Shown piece after piece: positions 20,923 through 30,596 of a stretch of DNA of 64,000 nt. Position 1 is the first letter of the stretch. Each line of letters begins with the position of its first letter. The position numbers and the translations under genes are program-made. The notes under the pieces are model-generated. The model worked only from the letters and a program-made list of their open reading frames with translations. It did no database searches and had not been told where the DNA came from. The DNA lies in assembly GCF_057098645.1 (NCBI RefSeq), contig NZ_CM169472.1; one strand, written 5' to 3'.

Positions 20923-22062
<1,140 letters not shown>

Positions 22063-22066
22063 TCAG

Positions 22067-22342
22067 CTATTTAAGATAGGCACGAACCAGTTCAATAGTG
22101 TCGTCAACGGATTGGCTGACTTCGCGGCTGTAGCAGTCATTTCGGTCAAACGTTTCCCGGATATGGCTTTCAAGCACTTCTGCCATCAGCCCATTAGCCG
22201 CGCCCCGAACGGCAGCGATCTGTTGGAGTATGGCACGGCATTCGGCATCACCCTCCAGCGACCGTTCCAGAGCATCAATCTGCCCTCGAATACGACGAAC
22301 TCGAGTAAGGACCTTTTTCTTCTCTTCCGGAGTACTGGGCAT
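22067..22342 (-). CDS. frmR: Formaldehyde-responsive repressor FrmR (CsoR/RcnR family), 91 aa
   Basis: [53 protein letters not shown]...; the ORF track extends seven codons upstream. Confidence 0.93.
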
Positions 22343-22368
22343 TTCGCACCTCATCATCTGCACGCAAT

Positions 22369-22417
22369 ATACTATAGGGGGGTATGCTATATGTCAATAC
22401 ATACCCCCCTATAGTAT
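22369..22417. promoter_or_regulatory. Candidate FrmR operator: inverted repeat with G6/C6 tracts upstream of frmR
   Basis: ATACTATAGGGGGGTAT-(15 nt)-ATACCCCCCTATAGTAT; TACT-G6/C6-AGTA architecture typical of RcnR/FrmR-family operators. Confidence 0.7.
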
Positions 22418-22501
22418 ATAACACTGGAGAATAATTGTTGTCCGAAGCCTAACCAGGTGAACGGTCCCTCAAGACAGATGGGGACCGTTTATGTGCTATT
22501 T

Positions 22502-23548
22502 TTATGCCGCATCCGCTAAAACAAACATCCCGTAAGGATGGATTTCGAGGTAATAGTGCTCACCAATATCGGGCTGTAAACGGGTGGCGTTTACTTGTAA
22601 TAAAATCTCCTGTCCATGCCACTCTACGGTCACTTCGTACTGCGGCCCCATGTAGGCGACATGGCGAATAACACAACGCTGACTCTCTTCGCCGTGATTG
22701 CTTAAGGTGATGGCTTCCGGGCGAACGCCGACGGTGCCGCTACCTTGCGCCGGGAAATGCGCCGCGCGCGGCAGGCGATAACCGTAGATATCGACATACT
22801 CTTCGCTAAAGTTCGCCGGGAACAGGTTGGCGTCGCCCATAAAACTTGCCATAAATCGGGAGGCTGGCTGACGATAGAGATCCTGCGGTGAGCCAATCTG
22901 CATGATGTGACCTTTATTCATCACCAGCACAGTGTCGGACACCGCGAAAGCTTCACTTTGATCGTGAGTGACGTAGAGCGACGTGATATTAAACTGCTTT
23001 TGCAGCTCGCGGATCTTATCGCGCATACTGCGGCGCAGGTTGGCATCGAGGTTACTTAACGGCTCATCAAACAGCAGCACCTTTGGCTTGAGGATCAACG
23101 CGCGGGCCAGTGCCACACGCTGTTGCTGACCACCGGAAATCTGATCGACATAGCGGTCCTCGAAGCCTTCCAGATCCACCATTGCCAGCGCCTCCTTCAC
23201 CCGCTGTTTCACTTCGCTACGCGACACGCCAAGCATCTTCAGCCCGTAGCCAACGTTTTCACCCAGCGACATATGCGGGAACAGAGCGTATGACTGAAAC
23301 ACCATGCAGATATCGCGCTGTTGAATGGAACGATGCGTGACATCTTCGCCATCAATAAAAATTTGCCCTTCGCTCGGTTTTTCCAGCCCGGCAACCAGAC
23401 GCAAAATGGTGGTTTTGCCACAGCCGGAAGGACCGAGCAGCGTCACCATTTGCCCTTGTGGAATGGTGAGATTGATATTGTCGATAACCGTATTACTGCC
23501 GAATCGTTTAGTGACGTTGCGCAGTTCAACAAAATTTTTCTGACTCAT
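22502..23548 (-). CDS. afuC: ABC transporter ATP-binding subunit, AfuC/FbpC-like, about 348 aa
   Basis: Walker [10 protein letters not shown], signature [15 protein letters not shown], Walker B LLFDEP; likely start [12 protein letters not shown] with RBS ggagcg; the ORF track extends to 23560. Confidence 0.88.
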
Positions 23549-23559
23549 AGTGCGCTCCA

Positions 23560-25638
23560 TTACGCCTGGTTTTTGGCTTTAGAACGGGAGATACGAGCTT
23601 CTCCGATCAGCCAGTCAAAGAGGAAAATAATCGCCAGCATCACCACGATCAGAATCGAACCATAGGCGATGGCTACGCCATATTCGCCGTCTTCAACGCG
23701 GTTAAGAATGTAGGCGGTTGCCACGCGGGTGTCCGGCGTGACGAGAAAGACGATGGCGCTGACCGTCGTGATGGCCCGCACAAAGCTGTAGATCAGGGCC
23801 GAGAGAATGGCCGGGCGCAGCAGCGGCAGTAAAATGTGCGTAATGGTTCGCAGTGAACCCGCGCGCAGGCTGAGTGAGGCTTCATCCAGCGATTTGTCGA
23901 TCTGCCCCAGGCCTGCAATCCCGGCGCGAATACCCACCGGAACGTTACGCATCACCATCGAGATAATCACAATTGCCGCCGTTCCGGTGAGATAAACCGG
24001 AGCGCTGTTAAAGGCAAGAATATACGAAACGCCCGCCACCGTACCCGGTACGGCAAAGCACAGCATGGTGGTGAACTCGATGGTCTTTTTGCCTTTGAAT
24101 TGTTGACGCACCACCACCCAGGCGATGAGCAGGCCAAAGATAGCGGTAATGGGAGCGGCAATCCCGGCGTAGAGCAGGGTATCCAGCAGTGAAGGCCACG
24201 CGCCGTCGCTCATTCCCTGACCAAATAGCTTGATAAAGTTATCCAGCGTCAGGGTGTAGTCCACGCCCCAGTTCACCGTGAAGCTGCCGTAGAAAATGCT
24301 GCCGTAGAGCAGGGCGTTAAAGGCAATCCATATCGCAAGTATGGCGACCACGCTCCATACCAGGGTGACCGGTAGCGGCTGGACGTCGCCACGGTAGGAT
24401 TTGCCGGAAACCGTGACGTAAGAGCGTTTACCAATCCACATATACTGGATGCAGAACACCAGCAGCGAGAACAGCAGCAGGAAAGCGCCAAGGGTGCTGG
24501 CGGCCTGATAATCCAGCTGCGAGCCGGTAATATAGAAGTAAATTTGCGTCGCCAGTACGTCGAAGTTACCGCCAAGTACCAGCGGGTTACTGAAATCAGC
24601 CAGTGACTGTACCACGACGATTAAAAAGGCATTGGCGAGTGCGGGCTTCAACAACGGCACAAACACGCCGTTAAAGGTTTGCCAGCGGCTGGCGCGCAGG
24701 GTGTAGGAGGCCTCTTCCAGCGAGGGATGAATGGTTTTAATGGCCCCGTCGAGGATCATAAATGCCATTGGCGTGAATGCCAGAACCTGTGCCAGCCAGA
24801 TCCCGGTAAAACCGTACAGCCAGTTGGTGTTGGTCAGCCCAAACCACTCCACCATAAATTCCGTAACATAGCCGGAGCGCCCCATCATGAGCGTCACGCC
24901 TAAGCCGACCACAAACGGTGGCGTAACGATGGGCAAAATGGAAAAGATGCGACCAATAATGGCGCTGCGTTTAGCGATGCGCGTGGTATAAATCGCCAGC
25001 ACCAGGCCGAAGAAAGTACAGCCTATCCCCACCGCTATCGACAAGACGATAGAGTTGACGATCACCTGAACAATATGTGCCTGCGAGAGCACGGTCATAA
25101 ACGCCAGCGGGGCGAACTCTCCCGCGTCGTTGGTGAACATCGGGATAAAAATGGCGATGCTCGGCCAGACGATAAAAATGCCAATCAGCGCCACAATCGC
25201 AATCAGTGAGCCGATCACGAAGCGGTCGCCACCCAGCCATTCGAGGCGGGTTAAGGCCAGCGTCATAATCGCGCCTAGTTCGACAAACAGCACGATGGCG
25301 GCGTAGCCTAAACCGCGTCCAACCACGGTGGCGCTGATGACGATAAACGCCATACAGAGCAATGCCCAGCCGGCATCGAAATAATGACGGCTACGTTGTT
25401 CGCGCGTGGCCTCACTAAACGGGCGGACCAGCAACAGGCTCGGGAGTAAATACCACAGCCAGCTGATATTAAAATGCGACCAGCCGTACGCCCCGAGGAT
25501 CTCATCACTCGTGGACTCCAGCAGGCCATAATCGAGGCTCCAGCTCGGCAACAGGACAAATGCCAGCCAACCCAGCAAAACCCAAAGGAAAATCGCATCC
25601 CGCTTTTTCACGGGATGGAGTGCAAGTGTCTGTGACAT
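23560..25638 (-). CDS. afuB: ABC transporter fused double permease, AfuB/FbpB-like, 692 aa
   Basis: Two tandem multi-TM permease halves; its stop overlaps the longest afuC ORF. Confidence 0.85.
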
Positions 25639-25706
25639 AGCAGTTCCGGTATGGTTGGCCGGGGCAGGCGTCTGCGCTGCACCCGGAAAATACGCCTAAT
25701 GCGGGT

Positions 25707-26738
25707 TTATTTACCCATCTTCACTTCGCTGACCCATTTATTAATCAATGCCTTACGAACATCCGTGGAACCATATTTATCCATGTCGTAGTTGATTAAT
25801 TTCAGGTCGTCGAGCTTCAGTGAATTTGGCGACGTTTCGGCGGTGGTATTGGTCAGGATCTGATAAGACTTCCCTTTCTTCCACGCCAGTTCCTGAGCTT
25901 CTTTTGATAATACCCAGTCCACAAACAGTTTGGCGTTGTCGAGGTTGCGCGCGCCTTTCAGAATGCTGACGCCGCCAATTTCGTAGCCTGTACCTTCACA
26001 CGGGGAAATCAACTCCAGCGGCGCGCCCTGTTCTTTTTCCAGCGAGTAGTCATGCAGGAAGCCAATACCAATCGCCGTTTCGCCACGGGCGGCGTTACGT
26101 GCCGGGGCTATGCCTGATTTGGTGTACTGAGAGACGTTGGCGTTCAGTTGTTTTAGATAATCAAAGGCCTGATCTTCCCCCCACAGCTGCGCAAAAGTAG
26201 CCAGGGCGGTGTAGGCAGTACCGGAACTTTGCGGATCGGCAATTTGAATTTCGCCTTTATATTCCGGTTTGGTGAGATCTTTCCAGCACTTCGGCACCGG
26301 CAGGTTTTTCTCTTTCAGACGATCGGTGTTTACGCCAAAACCGAGGATCCCCACATAAACGGCAGAGGACAGATTCCCTTTCACTTTTGCCGGATCGCGG
26401 AATTTCTCCATGATCTGCTCAAGGTTAGGGGATTTATACGCCTGTAGCAGGCCCATCTCGCCAGCCTGCGATTGCGGGTCTAAAGTGCCGCCGTACCAGA
26501 CGTCAGCCTGGGGGTTTTTCTTTTCAGCATCGACTTTTGCCAGGGTGCTTCCGGAACCGTTGCGGATAAACGAGGTTTTTACATCATATTTCTCGCCAAA
26601 CGCTTTGGTTTCGGCCTCACACATTTCATTGGTGGCGCTGCAATAGACCACCAGCCGGCCTTTTGCCTGCGCGGCACCCGTTAAAGTCGCCAGCGCAACG
26701 GCAGAAGCAATCAGAGTAGAGGTAAAGGTCATTTTCAT
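25707..26738 (-). CDS. afuA: Periplasmic substrate-binding protein, AfuA/FbpA-like, about 343 aa with signal peptide
   Basis: MKMTFTSTLIASAVALATLTGAAQA signal peptide followed by a type-II binding-protein fold; the longer ORF (to 27065) overlaps the upstream gene and is an artefact. Confidence 0.85.
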   Translation of the reverse strand: MKMTFTSTLIASAVALATLTGAAQAKGRLVVYCSATNEMCEAETKAFGEKYDVKTSFIRNGSGSTLAKVDAEKKNPQADVWYGGTLDPQSQAGEMGLLQAYKSPNLEQIMEKFRDPAKVKGNLSSAVYVGILGFGVNTDRLKEKNLPVPKCWKDLTKPEYKGEIQIADPQSSGTAYTALATFAQLWGEDQAFDYLKQLNANVSQYTKSGIAPARNAARGETAIGIGFLHDYSLEKEQGAPLELISPCEGTGYEIGGVSILKGARNLDNAKLFVDWVLSKEAQELAWKKGKSYQILTNTTAETSPNSLKLDDLKLINYDMDKYGSTDVRKALINKWVSEVKMGK

Positions 26739-28051
26739 TGTTTTATCCTTCGAGCGTGAGTGGTGGTGATGCCCGCCATCAGTAACGGCATCAGCAGTAA
26801 ACCCATAAGTACTGCGGCGACCGAGAGTAAACTGAACATTCCCGGCCAGCCGTAGCGTTCGATGACCAGCGACAGCGGCCAGCCTGCCAGCGCCGCGCCA
26901 AGGTAAGCGAACAGGCCGAGAAATCCGGTGATTGAACCCGCCGCAGCTTTGTGCCCACACTCCACCGCCGCAAGTCCAATCAGCATTTGTGGGCCAAAGA
27001 CGAAAAAGCCCACGGTAAAAAAGCACACTGCCAGCAGAGCGTAGTGATGAACCGGTGCCAGCCACAGTGCGGCGACTGACACCATCAACCCCAACGTGAA
27101 CAGCAAAATCATTGGCGCTCGTTGCCCGCTAAACAGCAAATCCGATCCCCATCCGGCAAATAACGCGCCGAGTAAGCCGCCCACTTCAAACAGCATTACC
27201 GTGGCGTTGGCGCTGAGCAGGTTGACACCGTGGCTTTCCGTCAGCCAGATATTGCCCCAGTCGTTAAGCGCAATCCGGATCACATAAACCAGTACATAAG
27301 AGACGCCCAGTAGCCAGATCAGCGGATTTTGCAGCATGGTGGTGCGCAACATTTGCCACAGCCCCATCGGCGGACTTTGTTGTTCCTGACGTAACTCCAG
27401 CGGATCGTGACGCCAGTGACCAACTGTCGGTAATCCCTCTTCCTGGGGCGTGCCTTTGAGTTGTAGCGTTAACCAGATCCCTAATGCCATGCTGATTATC
27501 CCCGGTGTCAGCATCGCGGCCTGCCAGCCCCACCAGTGGGCGGCAAAGGCGCTAATCAGCGGAATAATCGCTCCGCCAATGTTGATCGACATATTCCAGC
27601 AGCCCCACCAGAAACCGCGCTCATTGCGTGAGTACCAGTGGGTCAGCAAGCGGGCACACGGTGGCCATCCCCAGCCCTGAAAAAAACCGTTCAGTGTCCA
27701 GACCACAAGCAGAAGCGTAAGTGATTCGCCAAAGGCAAACACCACGTTCAATAACCCGGTGGCGAACAAGCCGACGCCCATAAAACCGCGTTGTCCATGG
27801 CTGTCATGCCACAGTCCGGCGGTAAATTTCGACAATCCGTAGCTGAGATAAAACAGCGAACCCAGCAGGCCAATGTCGCCTTTATCCAGTCCGAGGTCGG
27901 TTTGTAGCGCCGGAAGGACGTAATTCACGCTTTTTCGCGTCAGATAAAATGCGGCGTAGCCAATAATCATGCACATCAGCAATCGCGGACGTAATGTCCG
28001 GTAGCATTGATTAATTTCTCTCGCTGAACGCGCGTGCATGGTTGTCTCCAT
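26735..28051 (-). CDS. UhpC-like sugar-phosphate sensor/transporter (MFS, organophosphate:Pi antiporter family), 438 aa
   Basis: ...YAAFYLTRKSVNYVLPALQTDLGLDKGDIGLLGSLFYLSYGLSKF... resembles UhpC/UhpT/GlpT; its stop TGA overlaps the afuA start ATG (cAATGAaa). Confidence 0.82.
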   Translation of the reverse strand: METTMHARSAREINQCYRTLRPRLLMCMIIGYAAFYLTRKSVNYVLPALQTDLGLDKGDIGLLGSLFYLSYGLSKFTAGLWHDSHGQRGFMGVGLFATGLLNVVFAFGESLTLLLVVWTLNGFFQGWGWPPCARLLTHWYSRNERGFWWGCWNMSINIGGAIIPLISAFAAHWWGWQAAMLTPGIISMALGIWLTLQLKGTPQEEGLPTVGHWRHDPLELRQEQQSPPMGLWQMLRTTMLQNPLIWLLGVSYVLVYVIRIALNDWGNIWLTESHGVNLLSANATVMLFEVGGLLGALFAGWGSDLLFSGQRAPMILLFTLGLMVSVAALWLAPVHHYALLAVCFFTVGFFVFGPQMLIGLAAVECGHKAAAGSITGFLGLFAYLGAALAGWPLSLVIERYGWPGMFSLLSVAAVLMGLLLMPLLMAGITTTHARRIKQ

Positions 28052-28123
28052 GTTGCTGACTATATGAAAATGAAAGTGAAAGGGGATGAGAGAAAATCCG
28101 GGATACCTAAGACTTTTTCCTGG

Positions 28124-29665
28124 TTATCCGGCGATTTGTTGCAAAAATGTGGGCAAGTTAACAATTACCCGCGTGCCGTGCTGTTTTTCGAGCGTTAAGT
28201 CGCCGCCCAGGGCGCTGACGCGCTCACGCATCCCCTGAATGCCAAATCCGGCCATTTTCCCGCTGGCGATCCCCACACCGTTGTCGCTGACTTCCAGATG
28301 CAATACCTCTCCCTGCTGGCGCAGGATAATCGTCACTTCGCTGGCTTCGGCGTGTTTACAGACGTTATTGAGCAACTCCTGTAATAACCGATACAAGGTA
28401 AAGCGCACCGTTTCGTTTTCTGGTGTGGAGTTCAGTTGATAGGCAAACTGGCAATGAATGCCGCGTTCACTAAAGGCAAATTCATTAATCAGATGCAACA
28501 ACGCTTCGCGAAATGTCAGTTCATCAAGCGCGGGAGGCCGCAACTGGCGCAGCAATTGGCGGGTGGAGAGATGAATGCGGCGGGCGAGCTCATTGATTTG
28601 GCTGGCTGCGGATTGAATTTGCGCCGGATCACGCGCCCGCTTCACCAGTTGCGACTGGATCTGAATGGCGGTGATGTTCTGACCGATTTCGTCGTGCAGC
28701 TCTCGCGCCAGGTTTTTTCGCGTGTCCTCCTCGGTGTGGATCAGCTTTTCCGCCAATGCCCGCCGCGCTGCCAGCTCGGCCTCCAGCCGTTGTCGGTAAT
28801 GGTGCAGGTTTAGCGCCAGATGTTGCTGGCGACTGATGGCAATGCCCAGGCCAATTCCCAGCAAGGCCTGGGTCGCGAGGAAAATCTCCAGCTCCACCAG
28901 GTTACTAAAGCCCACGCCAACCTGGCGGGCGATGGTGATCATCATGCTGCCCAAAAGCCCGGAGAGTACGCCACCTTGCCAGCCAAATTTCCACGCCATC
29001 ACCACATTGGGCAAAAAGACCACGATCAACAGCAGACGTTCAATTTCAGGTGACAGCACCATCTGAGTGCCGATACCAATAATAAAAAACAGGCTACACC
29101 AGATGATTAAAGAGGTACGCAAGGGGGGATTATGCGTATCGAGTCCCAGGAGCTGGTAGCGATGCTGCTGGCGCAGAAACTCAAAGATAAGATAGACAAA
29201 CGGCGTCAGTAATACGCCGCCGGTAAATGAGGTCAAACCCGGCAGCATTATTGGGCCTGACATAAAAGGGGAGAGCAGGGCGGTATTCAACAATGAAGCT
29301 GCCGTGACAGTGGCTAACAGCAACGTCAGACGCTGCCAGTAAAGTGGAAAACGGTGCCAGAAGTTTTGTGCAAGGAGGGCAGGAAACAGGCTAATAACCG
29401 GCGTTGCCAGCATGAGATAACCGTTCAATAGCTGTTCACTATGGAGCCAGAACATCATCAGCAAAGGGGGGAGCACCAACGCAGGCCAGTAGCGGCGAGA
29501 GAGCAAAATAACAAGGGCGAGATAAACTCCCTGCGGGAGAAACAACACCGCCTGTTGACCGTTATTGGTCAGATAAAAGCTGAGCGTCCACAGCATCAGC
29601 CAGCCGGTTCCCCAGGCCAGCACAATAAACAGCGAAATCACCCAATGACGAAGATTGCGCGACAT
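28124..29665 (-). CDS. UhpB-like membrane sensor histidine kinase, 513 aa
   Basis: Multi-TM N-terminal domain, H-box ELHDEIGQNITAIQIQ and C-terminal HATPase region; start ATG overlaps the stop of the upstream regulator (TAATG). Confidence 0.85.
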   Translation of the reverse strand: MSRNLRHWVISLFIVLAWGTGWLMLWTLSFYLTNNGQQAVLFLPQGVYLALVILLSRRYWPALVLPPLLMMFWLHSEQLLNGYLMLATPVISLFPALLAQNFWHRFPLYWQRLTLLLATVTAASLLNTALLSPFMSGPIMLPGLTSFTGGVLLTPFVYLIFEFLRQQHRYQLLGLDTHNPPLRTSLIIWCSLFFIIGIGTQMVLSPEIERLLLIVVFLPNVVMAWKFGWQGGVLSGLLGSMMITIARQVGVGFSNLVELEIFLATQALLGIGLGIAISRQQHLALNLHHYRQRLEAELAARRALAEKLIHTEEDTRKNLARELHDEIGQNITAIQIQSQLVKRARDPAQIQSAASQINELARRIHLSTRQLLRQLRPPALDELTFREALLHLINEFAFSERGIHCQFAYQLNSTPENETVRFTLYRLLQELLNNVCKHAEASEVTIILRQQGEVLHLEVSDNGVGIASGKMAGFGIQGMRERVSALGGDLTLEKQHGTRVIVNLPTFLQQIAG

Positions 29666-30294
29666 TAATGCCCCGCCAGCAGATGGTGGTCGAGCGCAAA
29701 ATGTACCAGTTCAATGGTGCTATGGCAGTTCAGTTTTCCCAGCACATTGGCGCGATGCACATGTACCGTTTTATGACTGAGTTCGAGTTTAAAGGCGATC
29801 TCTTTAACGCTGTCTCCTTTGACCAGTAAATCAAACACTTCACGTTCTCGTGGGGTGAGAATTTCCAGCGCCTGGGCGGGTTGCCCGCCGCCGCGTAAAG
29901 CCCGAATCGCATCGGCACAGAGATAATGCCCGCCCAGCCCGACCGAGCGCACCGCCTGTACTAACTCTTCCGGCCCACAGCGTTTGGTTAAATACCCGCT
30001 GGCACCGGCATCCAGCGCGCTTTGCACAAAGGTTGGCGCGTCATAAATGCTAAGAATAATGGCGCGAAATTGCGGTTTTTGTGCACGCAGGCGCTTAAGC
30101 AAACTGAGGCCGTTTTCGTCCGGCATGGCAATATCAATGACGGCAACATTGACGTCATCACGGATTAATGCCGACCATGCCTGCGCGGCACTACTGTACT
30201 GACCAATGACCTCCAGATCGTCTTCCAGAGAGAGTAATTGTGCGAAGCCAGAGCGCACCACCACATGGTCATCCACCAGCACTACCCGAATCAT
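29665..30294 (-). CDS. UhpA-like response regulator (NarL/FixJ family, LuxR-type HTH), 209 aa
   Basis: MIRVVLVDDHVVVRSGFAQLL... receiver domain with Asp in VAVIDIAMPD; C-terminal HTH ...KEIAFKLELSHKTVHVHRANVLGKL. Confidence 0.87.
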   Translation of the reverse strand: MIRVVLVDDHVVVRSGFAQLLSLEDDLEVIGQYSSAAQAWSALIRDDVNVAVIDIAMPDENGLSLLKRLRAQKPQFRAIILSIYDAPTFVQSALDAGASGYLTKRCGPEELVQAVRSVGLGGHYLCADAIRALRGGGQPAQALEILTPREREVFDLLVKGDSVKEIAFKLELSHKTVHVHRANVLGKLNCHSTIELVHFALDHHLLAGH

Positions 30295-30596
30295 ACTTTT
30301 CTTCTCTTATTATCTAATTCTCCTATCATGCATCACGGCGCGGCGCTGGCAATCAACCAGCGACAGATATGGAATGGATGTAACAAAATGGCAATAATTT
30401 GCCGGAGCGCGCACATCTTATCTGGCTTGTGAACCGGCGGGATACGTTCGCCAAAACCGCAAAATGCGCAAACTCGCTAACCATTGCCGATTTTTTTCTA
30501 AAAACGCTTTGTTCTTAACAAGACCTTTTAATTCCTTTATCAAACTGACCCGCAACGAAATACTGCTCCCATAACAAGACAGGGGAGCAGACAATC

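Follow-up and report, generated by a model that had tools for sequence, protein, structure and literature searches.

The window analysed here, a stretch of 64,000 nucleotides, is 100% identical to E. coli O157:H7 strain TR01 over positions 22300-22700. Its minus strand carries frmB, frmA and frmR (22067-22342) and, upstream of these, afuC, afuB, afuA, the uhpC-like gene z0461, fusK and fusR, with tauA on the plus strand beyond fusR. The six genes from afuC to fusR form the island OI-20 (PMC4546632), and z0461 and fusKR are treated in PMC6199705; K-12 has yaiO-yaiX-IS2-yaiP-yaiS in their place. Between afuC and frmR lies an intergenic region of 159 nt in which, read in the afu sense, a hairpin begins 13 nt past the afuC stop codon and is followed after 63 nt by the frmR promoter, which points in the same direction. 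The features at this junction are as follows.

22361..22397, minus strand: frmR promoter, with the -35 element TTGACA at 22397-22392, a -10 element ending at 22369 and the start at 22361
22425..30393, minus strand: approximate extent of the six-gene module (afuCBA, z0461/uhpC-like, fusK, fusR), from homology to an island copy at another locus (C11-type, see below)
22434..22435, no strand: left breakpoint, at which the homology shared with K-12 and most E. coli ends, from genome comparison
22460..22489, minus strand: stem-loop with perfect 9-bp arms (22460-22468/22481-22489), plus a G-U pair and two inner pairs
22502..22504, minus strand: afuC stop codon TAA, which overlaps the final two T of a T5 run on the plus strand
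22502..23548, minus strand: afuC (annotated fbpC), encoding the ATP-binding subunit, last gene of the z0461-afuABC cluster, from annotation and PMC4546632

Direct reading of the sequence placed the left arm, aacggtccc, at 22460-22468 and the right arm, gggaccgtt, at 22481-22489, with the 12-nt spacer tcaagacagatg between them at 22469-22480. The inverted repeat that an earlier note on this DNA had described is therefore real, although its start had been given one base early, at 22459 instead of 22460. The loop is 12 nt long, or 7 nt in an alternative fold with a bulged inner helix. The 32-nt hairpin segment had a folding energy of -16.7 kcal/mol on the plus strand and -17.0 kcal/mol on the minus strand (z-scores of -4.0 and -4.5, respectively), and none of 200 shuffled sequences was equally stable. 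Inverted repeats with perfect arms of 9 bp or more and a loop of 3-20 nt occurred at about 13 distinct loci in the window (29 overlapping hits), compared with 5.0 +/- 2.9 such hits per window in dinucleotide shuffles. At the scale of the window the 9-bp repeat is thus about 2.5-fold enriched over shuffles, and taken alone it is just modestly above chance. The case for the hairpin is strengthened by its position 13 nt from a stop codon and by the fact that a diverged afu copy has a variant hairpin in the corresponding spot. A permissive E-value Rfam scan of 21500-23500 returned only chance matches to eukaryotic miRNAs and snoRNAs. As an intergenic palindrome 3' of an operon the hairpin is reminiscent of REP/BIME elements, and REP-like repeats do follow afuC in many other Enterobacteriaceae; unlike these, however, it is a single-copy sequence (median of one place per genome) that does not resemble the REP consensus, and an identity as a REP/BIME repeat was rejected.

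We next considered to which side of the junction the hairpin belongs. Homology to K-12 stops at position 22434, as it does for 4,965 of 5,415 complete E. coli genomes with a match to the query, and the frmR-afuC junction is carried by 450 of 5426 complete E. coli genomes, in one copy each. The apparent likeness between K-12 and O157 past 22434 (a common GGTGAA) was not significant (p = 0.08). Since K-12 homology ends at 22434 and the junction is specific to these 450 genomes, the hairpin is island DNA and not conserved frmR upstream sequence. It begins 25 nt beyond the last K-12-homologous base, so that the suggested coincidence with the K-12 breakpoint does not hold (22434 versus 22460); of the idea that it marks the island boundary, what stands is that it lies near the island edge, but it lies inside the breakpoint and belongs to the afu module. 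In K-12 the spacer between yaiO and frmR (L002 6136-6230) has a GC-rich hairpin of its own after yaiO, GCCGCCC-8nt-GGGCGGC, which lacks a U-tract and is followed by a C10 run; this hairpin, upstream of the frmR promoter, is arranged analogously to the afuC hairpin.

The same six-gene module was found at a different chromosomal site in eight genomes (C11-type), with a tyrosine integrase and ulaE alongside and a convergent phosphoethanolamine-transferase gene beyond afuC. In these strains the module is part of a larger island, in which, as seen in E. coli CUPF09 (L113 8694-9875), the tyrosine recombinase adjoins the response-regulator gene, beside ulaE. Homology between the O157-type and C11-type copies extends leftward past the hairpin for about 35 nt (shuffle p about 0.01), a control segment further left being dissimilar, and on the far side it stops about 100 nt upstream of fusR. 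From these two limits we placed the module at about 22425-30393, with the hairpin some 35 nt inside its left end. This comparison of copies indicates that the hairpin is imported and travels with the afu/fusKR module. At the other end of the O157 island, about 165 nt upstream of tauA (30394-30557) match neither K-12 nor the C11-type module, and most of the O157 tauA promoter region would therefore seem to have been replaced by sequence of a third origin. The tauA leader itself contains a hairpin at 30563-30590, CTGCTCCC-ATAACAAGACAG-GGGAGCAG, whose loop is 12 nt long and whose right arm includes the Shine-Dalgarno sequence; K-12 has this hairpin as well.

At an equal distance after afuC, the C11-type copy has the hairpin GTCCCCTC-AGAGCAA-GAGGGGAC, which shares a GTCCC/GGGAC core with the O157-type hairpin in a shifted register. 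Four substitutions were found in the hairpin within the two lineages, all of them in the loop or the G-U closing pair and none in the Watson-Crick stems. This sparing of the stems is suggestive only, and structural conservation is weakly supported (a rough count gives a combined p of about 0.04) because no more than two or three independent sequence lineages contribute to it. A third form of the afu copy (G8-type) occurs in about 59 genomes, where the left arm has been replaced and the compact hairpin is absent; afuC and afuB are annotated as intact in these genomes and there is no sign of afu gene loss. Because its left arm is replaced there, the hairpin is dispensable at least in the G8-type copies. 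Their homology break lies within the hairpin loop (L004 2975-2992 in E. coli G8, and the same in L006 and L088-L091), and in the genome that represents E. coli in GTDB (L007) the contig, too, stops within this loop. Abutting the break is TGTGTATAAGAGACAG, which we take to resemble an IS50/Tn5-type end; no inverted-repeat partner turned up when the G8-type junction was searched for an IS end, and the end of an IS66 lies about 150 nt further out. Outside E. coli, the afuC 3' flanks of 80 other species were not homologous to the E. coli flank. They contained non-homologous hairpins, REP-like repeats or canonical terminators, and a structured 3' end after afuC is thus the norm in these species. 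An afuC/fbpC homologue at about 80% identity is also present on 334 plasmids, mostly conjugative E. coli plasmids (plasmid hits H71-H90), in which homology to the chromosomal copy ends at the stop codon and the 3' flank is unrelated.

The neighbourhood of the hairpin invites a reading as a terminator, and both strands were assessed for this. On the plus strand the hairpin is directly followed by tatgtgctattttt (22490-22503). T-richness was found on this strand only, as had been proposed, with the tail UUUAUGUGCUAUUUUU after the stem on the plus strand versus CACCTGGTTAGG, which has no U-tract, on the minus strand. With a terminator scanner, neither strand gave a terminator-like site at the hairpin. 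We also computed a re-implemented score d of the d'Aubenton-Carafa/TransTermHP type, which was used as a relative ranking only. The best plus-strand value was +6.2, for a stem ending at 22487 with the proximal tail UUUAUGUG, and the best minus-strand value was -10.6, for the tail CACCUGGUUAGG, which has almost no U and a tail score of 1.7-3.0. Scores of at least 6.2 were obtained at 24 sites in the window compared with 9-15 in five dinucleotide shuffles; this level is reached by chance about half the time, which places the plus-strand score in a grey zone. The minus-strand hairpin is below the terminator threshold. Further into the afu read-through RNA lies the FrmR operator/promoter palindrome CTATAGGGGGGTATG...CATACCCCCCTATAG (22372-22414; 43 nt, -27.5 kcal/mol), which is borderline terminator-like in the afu sense (d = +1.3) and might provide a further barrier on the way from afu to frmR.

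Transcription start sites were taken from Cappable-seq of EDL933 under eight conditions, in which each start was required in three biological replicates (PMC10469882). Positions were transferred as EDL933 = window + 415637, a relation confirmed by both gene ends and an indel-free alignment. The starts and the associated promoter element are as follows.

22361 (EDL933 437998), minus strand: frmR start, 8 of 8 conditions, PMC10469882 Table S4
22376 (EDL933 438013), minus strand: minor start, 1 of 8 conditions, PMC10469882 Table S4
22494..22502, plus strand: extended -10 element TGcTATTTT, from sequence and its register to the mapped start
22509 (EDL933 438146), plus strand: antisense start, afuC, 6 of 8 conditions, PMC10469882 Tables S4 and S6

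The start at 22509 was seen in exponential phase in LB, M9, acid and salt and in stationary phase in M9 and salt, and it was differentially expressed between stationary-phase conditions (Table S10); the EDL933 dataset (PMC10469882) contains 5,967 antisense starts in all, this one included. Relative to it, the TG (22494-95) falls at -15/-14 and TATTTT (22497-22502) at -12 to -7, with an A at -11 and a T at -7. This is what is expected of an extended -10 (TGn) sigma-70 promoter, namely a TG plus hexamer with a mapped 5' end 7 nt after the hexamer. As the motif stands in exact register to the published start, TGcTATTTT is most likely an extended -10 promoter driving the 22509 start and not the tail of a terminator. 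The hairpin DNA occupies -49 to -20 of this promoter, which has no recognisable -35 element; that region is the hairpin loop. The antisense promoter is possibly incidental, since its TG is restricted to the O157-type copy and is absent from the C11-type and G8-type copies. Additional plus-strand antisense starts lie within afuC/afuB at window positions 22882, 22998 and 24540, two of them in 8 of 8 conditions. Upstream in the operon, the start mapped for the uhpC-like z0461 (EDL933 443688, window 28051, minus strand; 7 of 8 conditions) coincides with the A of the annotated ATG, so that the z0461 mRNA is leaderless or the start codon is mis-annotated.

Several explanations of the hairpin have to be weighed against these data. 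The earlier note had read it, together with the T-tract, as an intrinsic terminator on the plus strand that would halt transcription running rightward out of the frmR promoter region and so may insulate the afu genes, and the island, from divergent frmR promoter activity. The sole U-rich tail is indeed on that strand, the score is marginally positive, an antisense start in frmB (EDL933 436137, window 20500) could in principle send transcripts rightward, and in the C11-type context a convergent plus-strand gene lies upstream. In its GC-rich stem at a gene end and its moderately U-rich plus-strand tail the hairpin thus resembles Rho-independent terminators. It differs from them in its long loop (10-12 nt), in a T5 run (22499-22503) that begins 10 nt past the stem and whose last two T are part of the afuC stop codon, and in a score within the range of chance; in the C11-type copy the U-rich tail is even further from the stem. 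There is also little for such a terminator to act on. No plus-strand gene lies upstream, no promoter-like site was found on that strand in 22300-22460, and no plus-strand start is listed between EDL933 437998 and 438146 in any of the eight conditions (PMC10469882 Table S4), which means that these data show no sign of the source proposed for rightward transcription; the frmB start is the nearest one upstream and is about 2 kb away. Antisense transcription into afuC begins 20 nt past the hairpin, and afuC is therefore not insulated. We consider this explanation, and with it the proposed insulation, improbable. A terminator in the opposite orientation, self-sufficient despite the missing U-tract and shielding the frmR promoter from afu read-through, would have the right position and orientation: a strong GC-rich stem-loop of 9-10 bp follows a co-oriented gene, and insulation would be useful with a co-directional promoter so close. 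However, no U-tract (about 5 or more U in 8) is present right after the stem, which bears out what had been said of the afu-sense strand, and intrinsic termination by E. coli RNA polymerase is efficient only where there is a U-tract. With the strongly negative score and the absence of the hairpin from G8-type copies, there is little likelihood that the hairpin ends the operon in this way.

The hairpin might also have no function, being a neutral inverted repeat inherited with the module, next to a T-run that is an accident of the stop codon context. About five such repeats are expected per shuffled window, the left arm has been lost in the G8-type genomes with the afu genes apparently intact, and sequence diversity is very low, a metagenome pattern scan having found O157-type and G8-type copies only and no new variants. 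Its placement directly 3' of the operon and the stems spared by substitutions argue against neutrality, as does the fact that hairpin potential is kept by different stems in a shifted register in the two diverged lineages (a stem of 9 bp around 12 nt of loop in one, of 8 bp around 7 nt in the other). On balance neutrality seems unlikely, yet it deserves some weight. Much harder to sustain is an element acting at the DNA level, such as a palindrome bound by a protein, or a site of recombination or attachment at the island boundary. Measured between their centres, the half-sites are separated by 21 bp, equal to two helical turns, the module end is within about 35 nt, and the loop has CAAGACAG in common with the tauA leader hairpin across the island. 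But the C11-type geometry differs, the sequence is single-copy, and it is 25 nt off the breakpoint of an O157 island in which no integrase or tRNA was found. No direct repeat of at least 9 nt links the two island junctions, the one 8-mer match being consistent with chance (expected about 0.3 times). The tauA leader hairpin has CAAGACAG plus GGGGA in common with the loop and right arm of the afuC hairpin. An attachment site was rejected on the grounds of the breakpoint, the linking repeat and the integrase, and we regard any DNA-level role as highly improbable. Finally, the stem-loop and the antisense promoter could form one compact unit in which sense read-through and antisense initiation interfere with each other, which we consider very unlikely.

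The explanation that we favour, with a probability of roughly 0.6, is that the hairpin is the ordinary operon-distal stem-loop of the z0461-afuABC mRNA, an exonuclease barrier or a weak terminator, beside an antisense promoter. Efficient factor-independent termination at the hairpin is unlikely because no U-tract follows the stem in the operon sense, and we infer that it forms the 3'-terminal structure of this mRNA, with a probable role as a barrier to exonucleases or as a weak pause site or terminator. It would have arrived with the horizontally acquired z0461-afuABC unit of OI-20. Transcripts of afu would terminate or read through further downstream, after which 3'-to-5' exonucleases would trim the mRNA back and halt at the stem-loop, while pausing or weak termination at the hairpin may limit some of the run-on into the co-directional frmR promoter. 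On the opposite strand, TGcTATTTT would fire the antisense transcript from 22509 into afuC.

A precedent is the trp operon of E. coli, where the trp t hairpin is the processed end of transcripts that were terminated at the Rho-dependent trp t'. The afuC hairpin is similar in that it is a stable GC-rich structure that closely follows the final stop codon, within the 3' UTR of the operon as is expected of an exonuclease barrier, and lacks an adjacent U-tract. By analogy its expected role would be to block 3'-to-5' exonucleases. In contrast to the trp t-type case, the untranslated gap to frmR is short, at 159 nt, and shows no C-richness (C/G about 0.8-1.1). In E. coli, 3'-to-5' exonucleases trim Rho-terminated transcripts, and operon-distal stabilising stem-loops of such transcripts are a general phenomenon (PMC7815308); reading the afuC hairpin as a barrier fits this general trimming.

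For the hairpin itself, the significance of these results goes little beyond annotation. If the hairpin and the antisense promoter did work as a unit, afuC expression would be tuned by it, and the afu operon would be coupled to, or uncoupled from, the resident frmRAB formaldehyde operon. The locus illustrates that a T-run beside a hairpin can be a -10 promoter element and not a terminator tail, and here it was public start-site data that decided between the two. The analysis also shows that the mobile six-gene module begins, on its left side, at about 22425. Altogether, OI-20 emerges as a sugar-phosphate/fucose-sensing module of EHEC that was inserted in the same direction as frmR, only 63 nt ahead of its promoter. 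No canonical terminator separates the two, and because of this arrangement it is reasonable to consider read-through from afu into the formaldehyde-detoxification operon.
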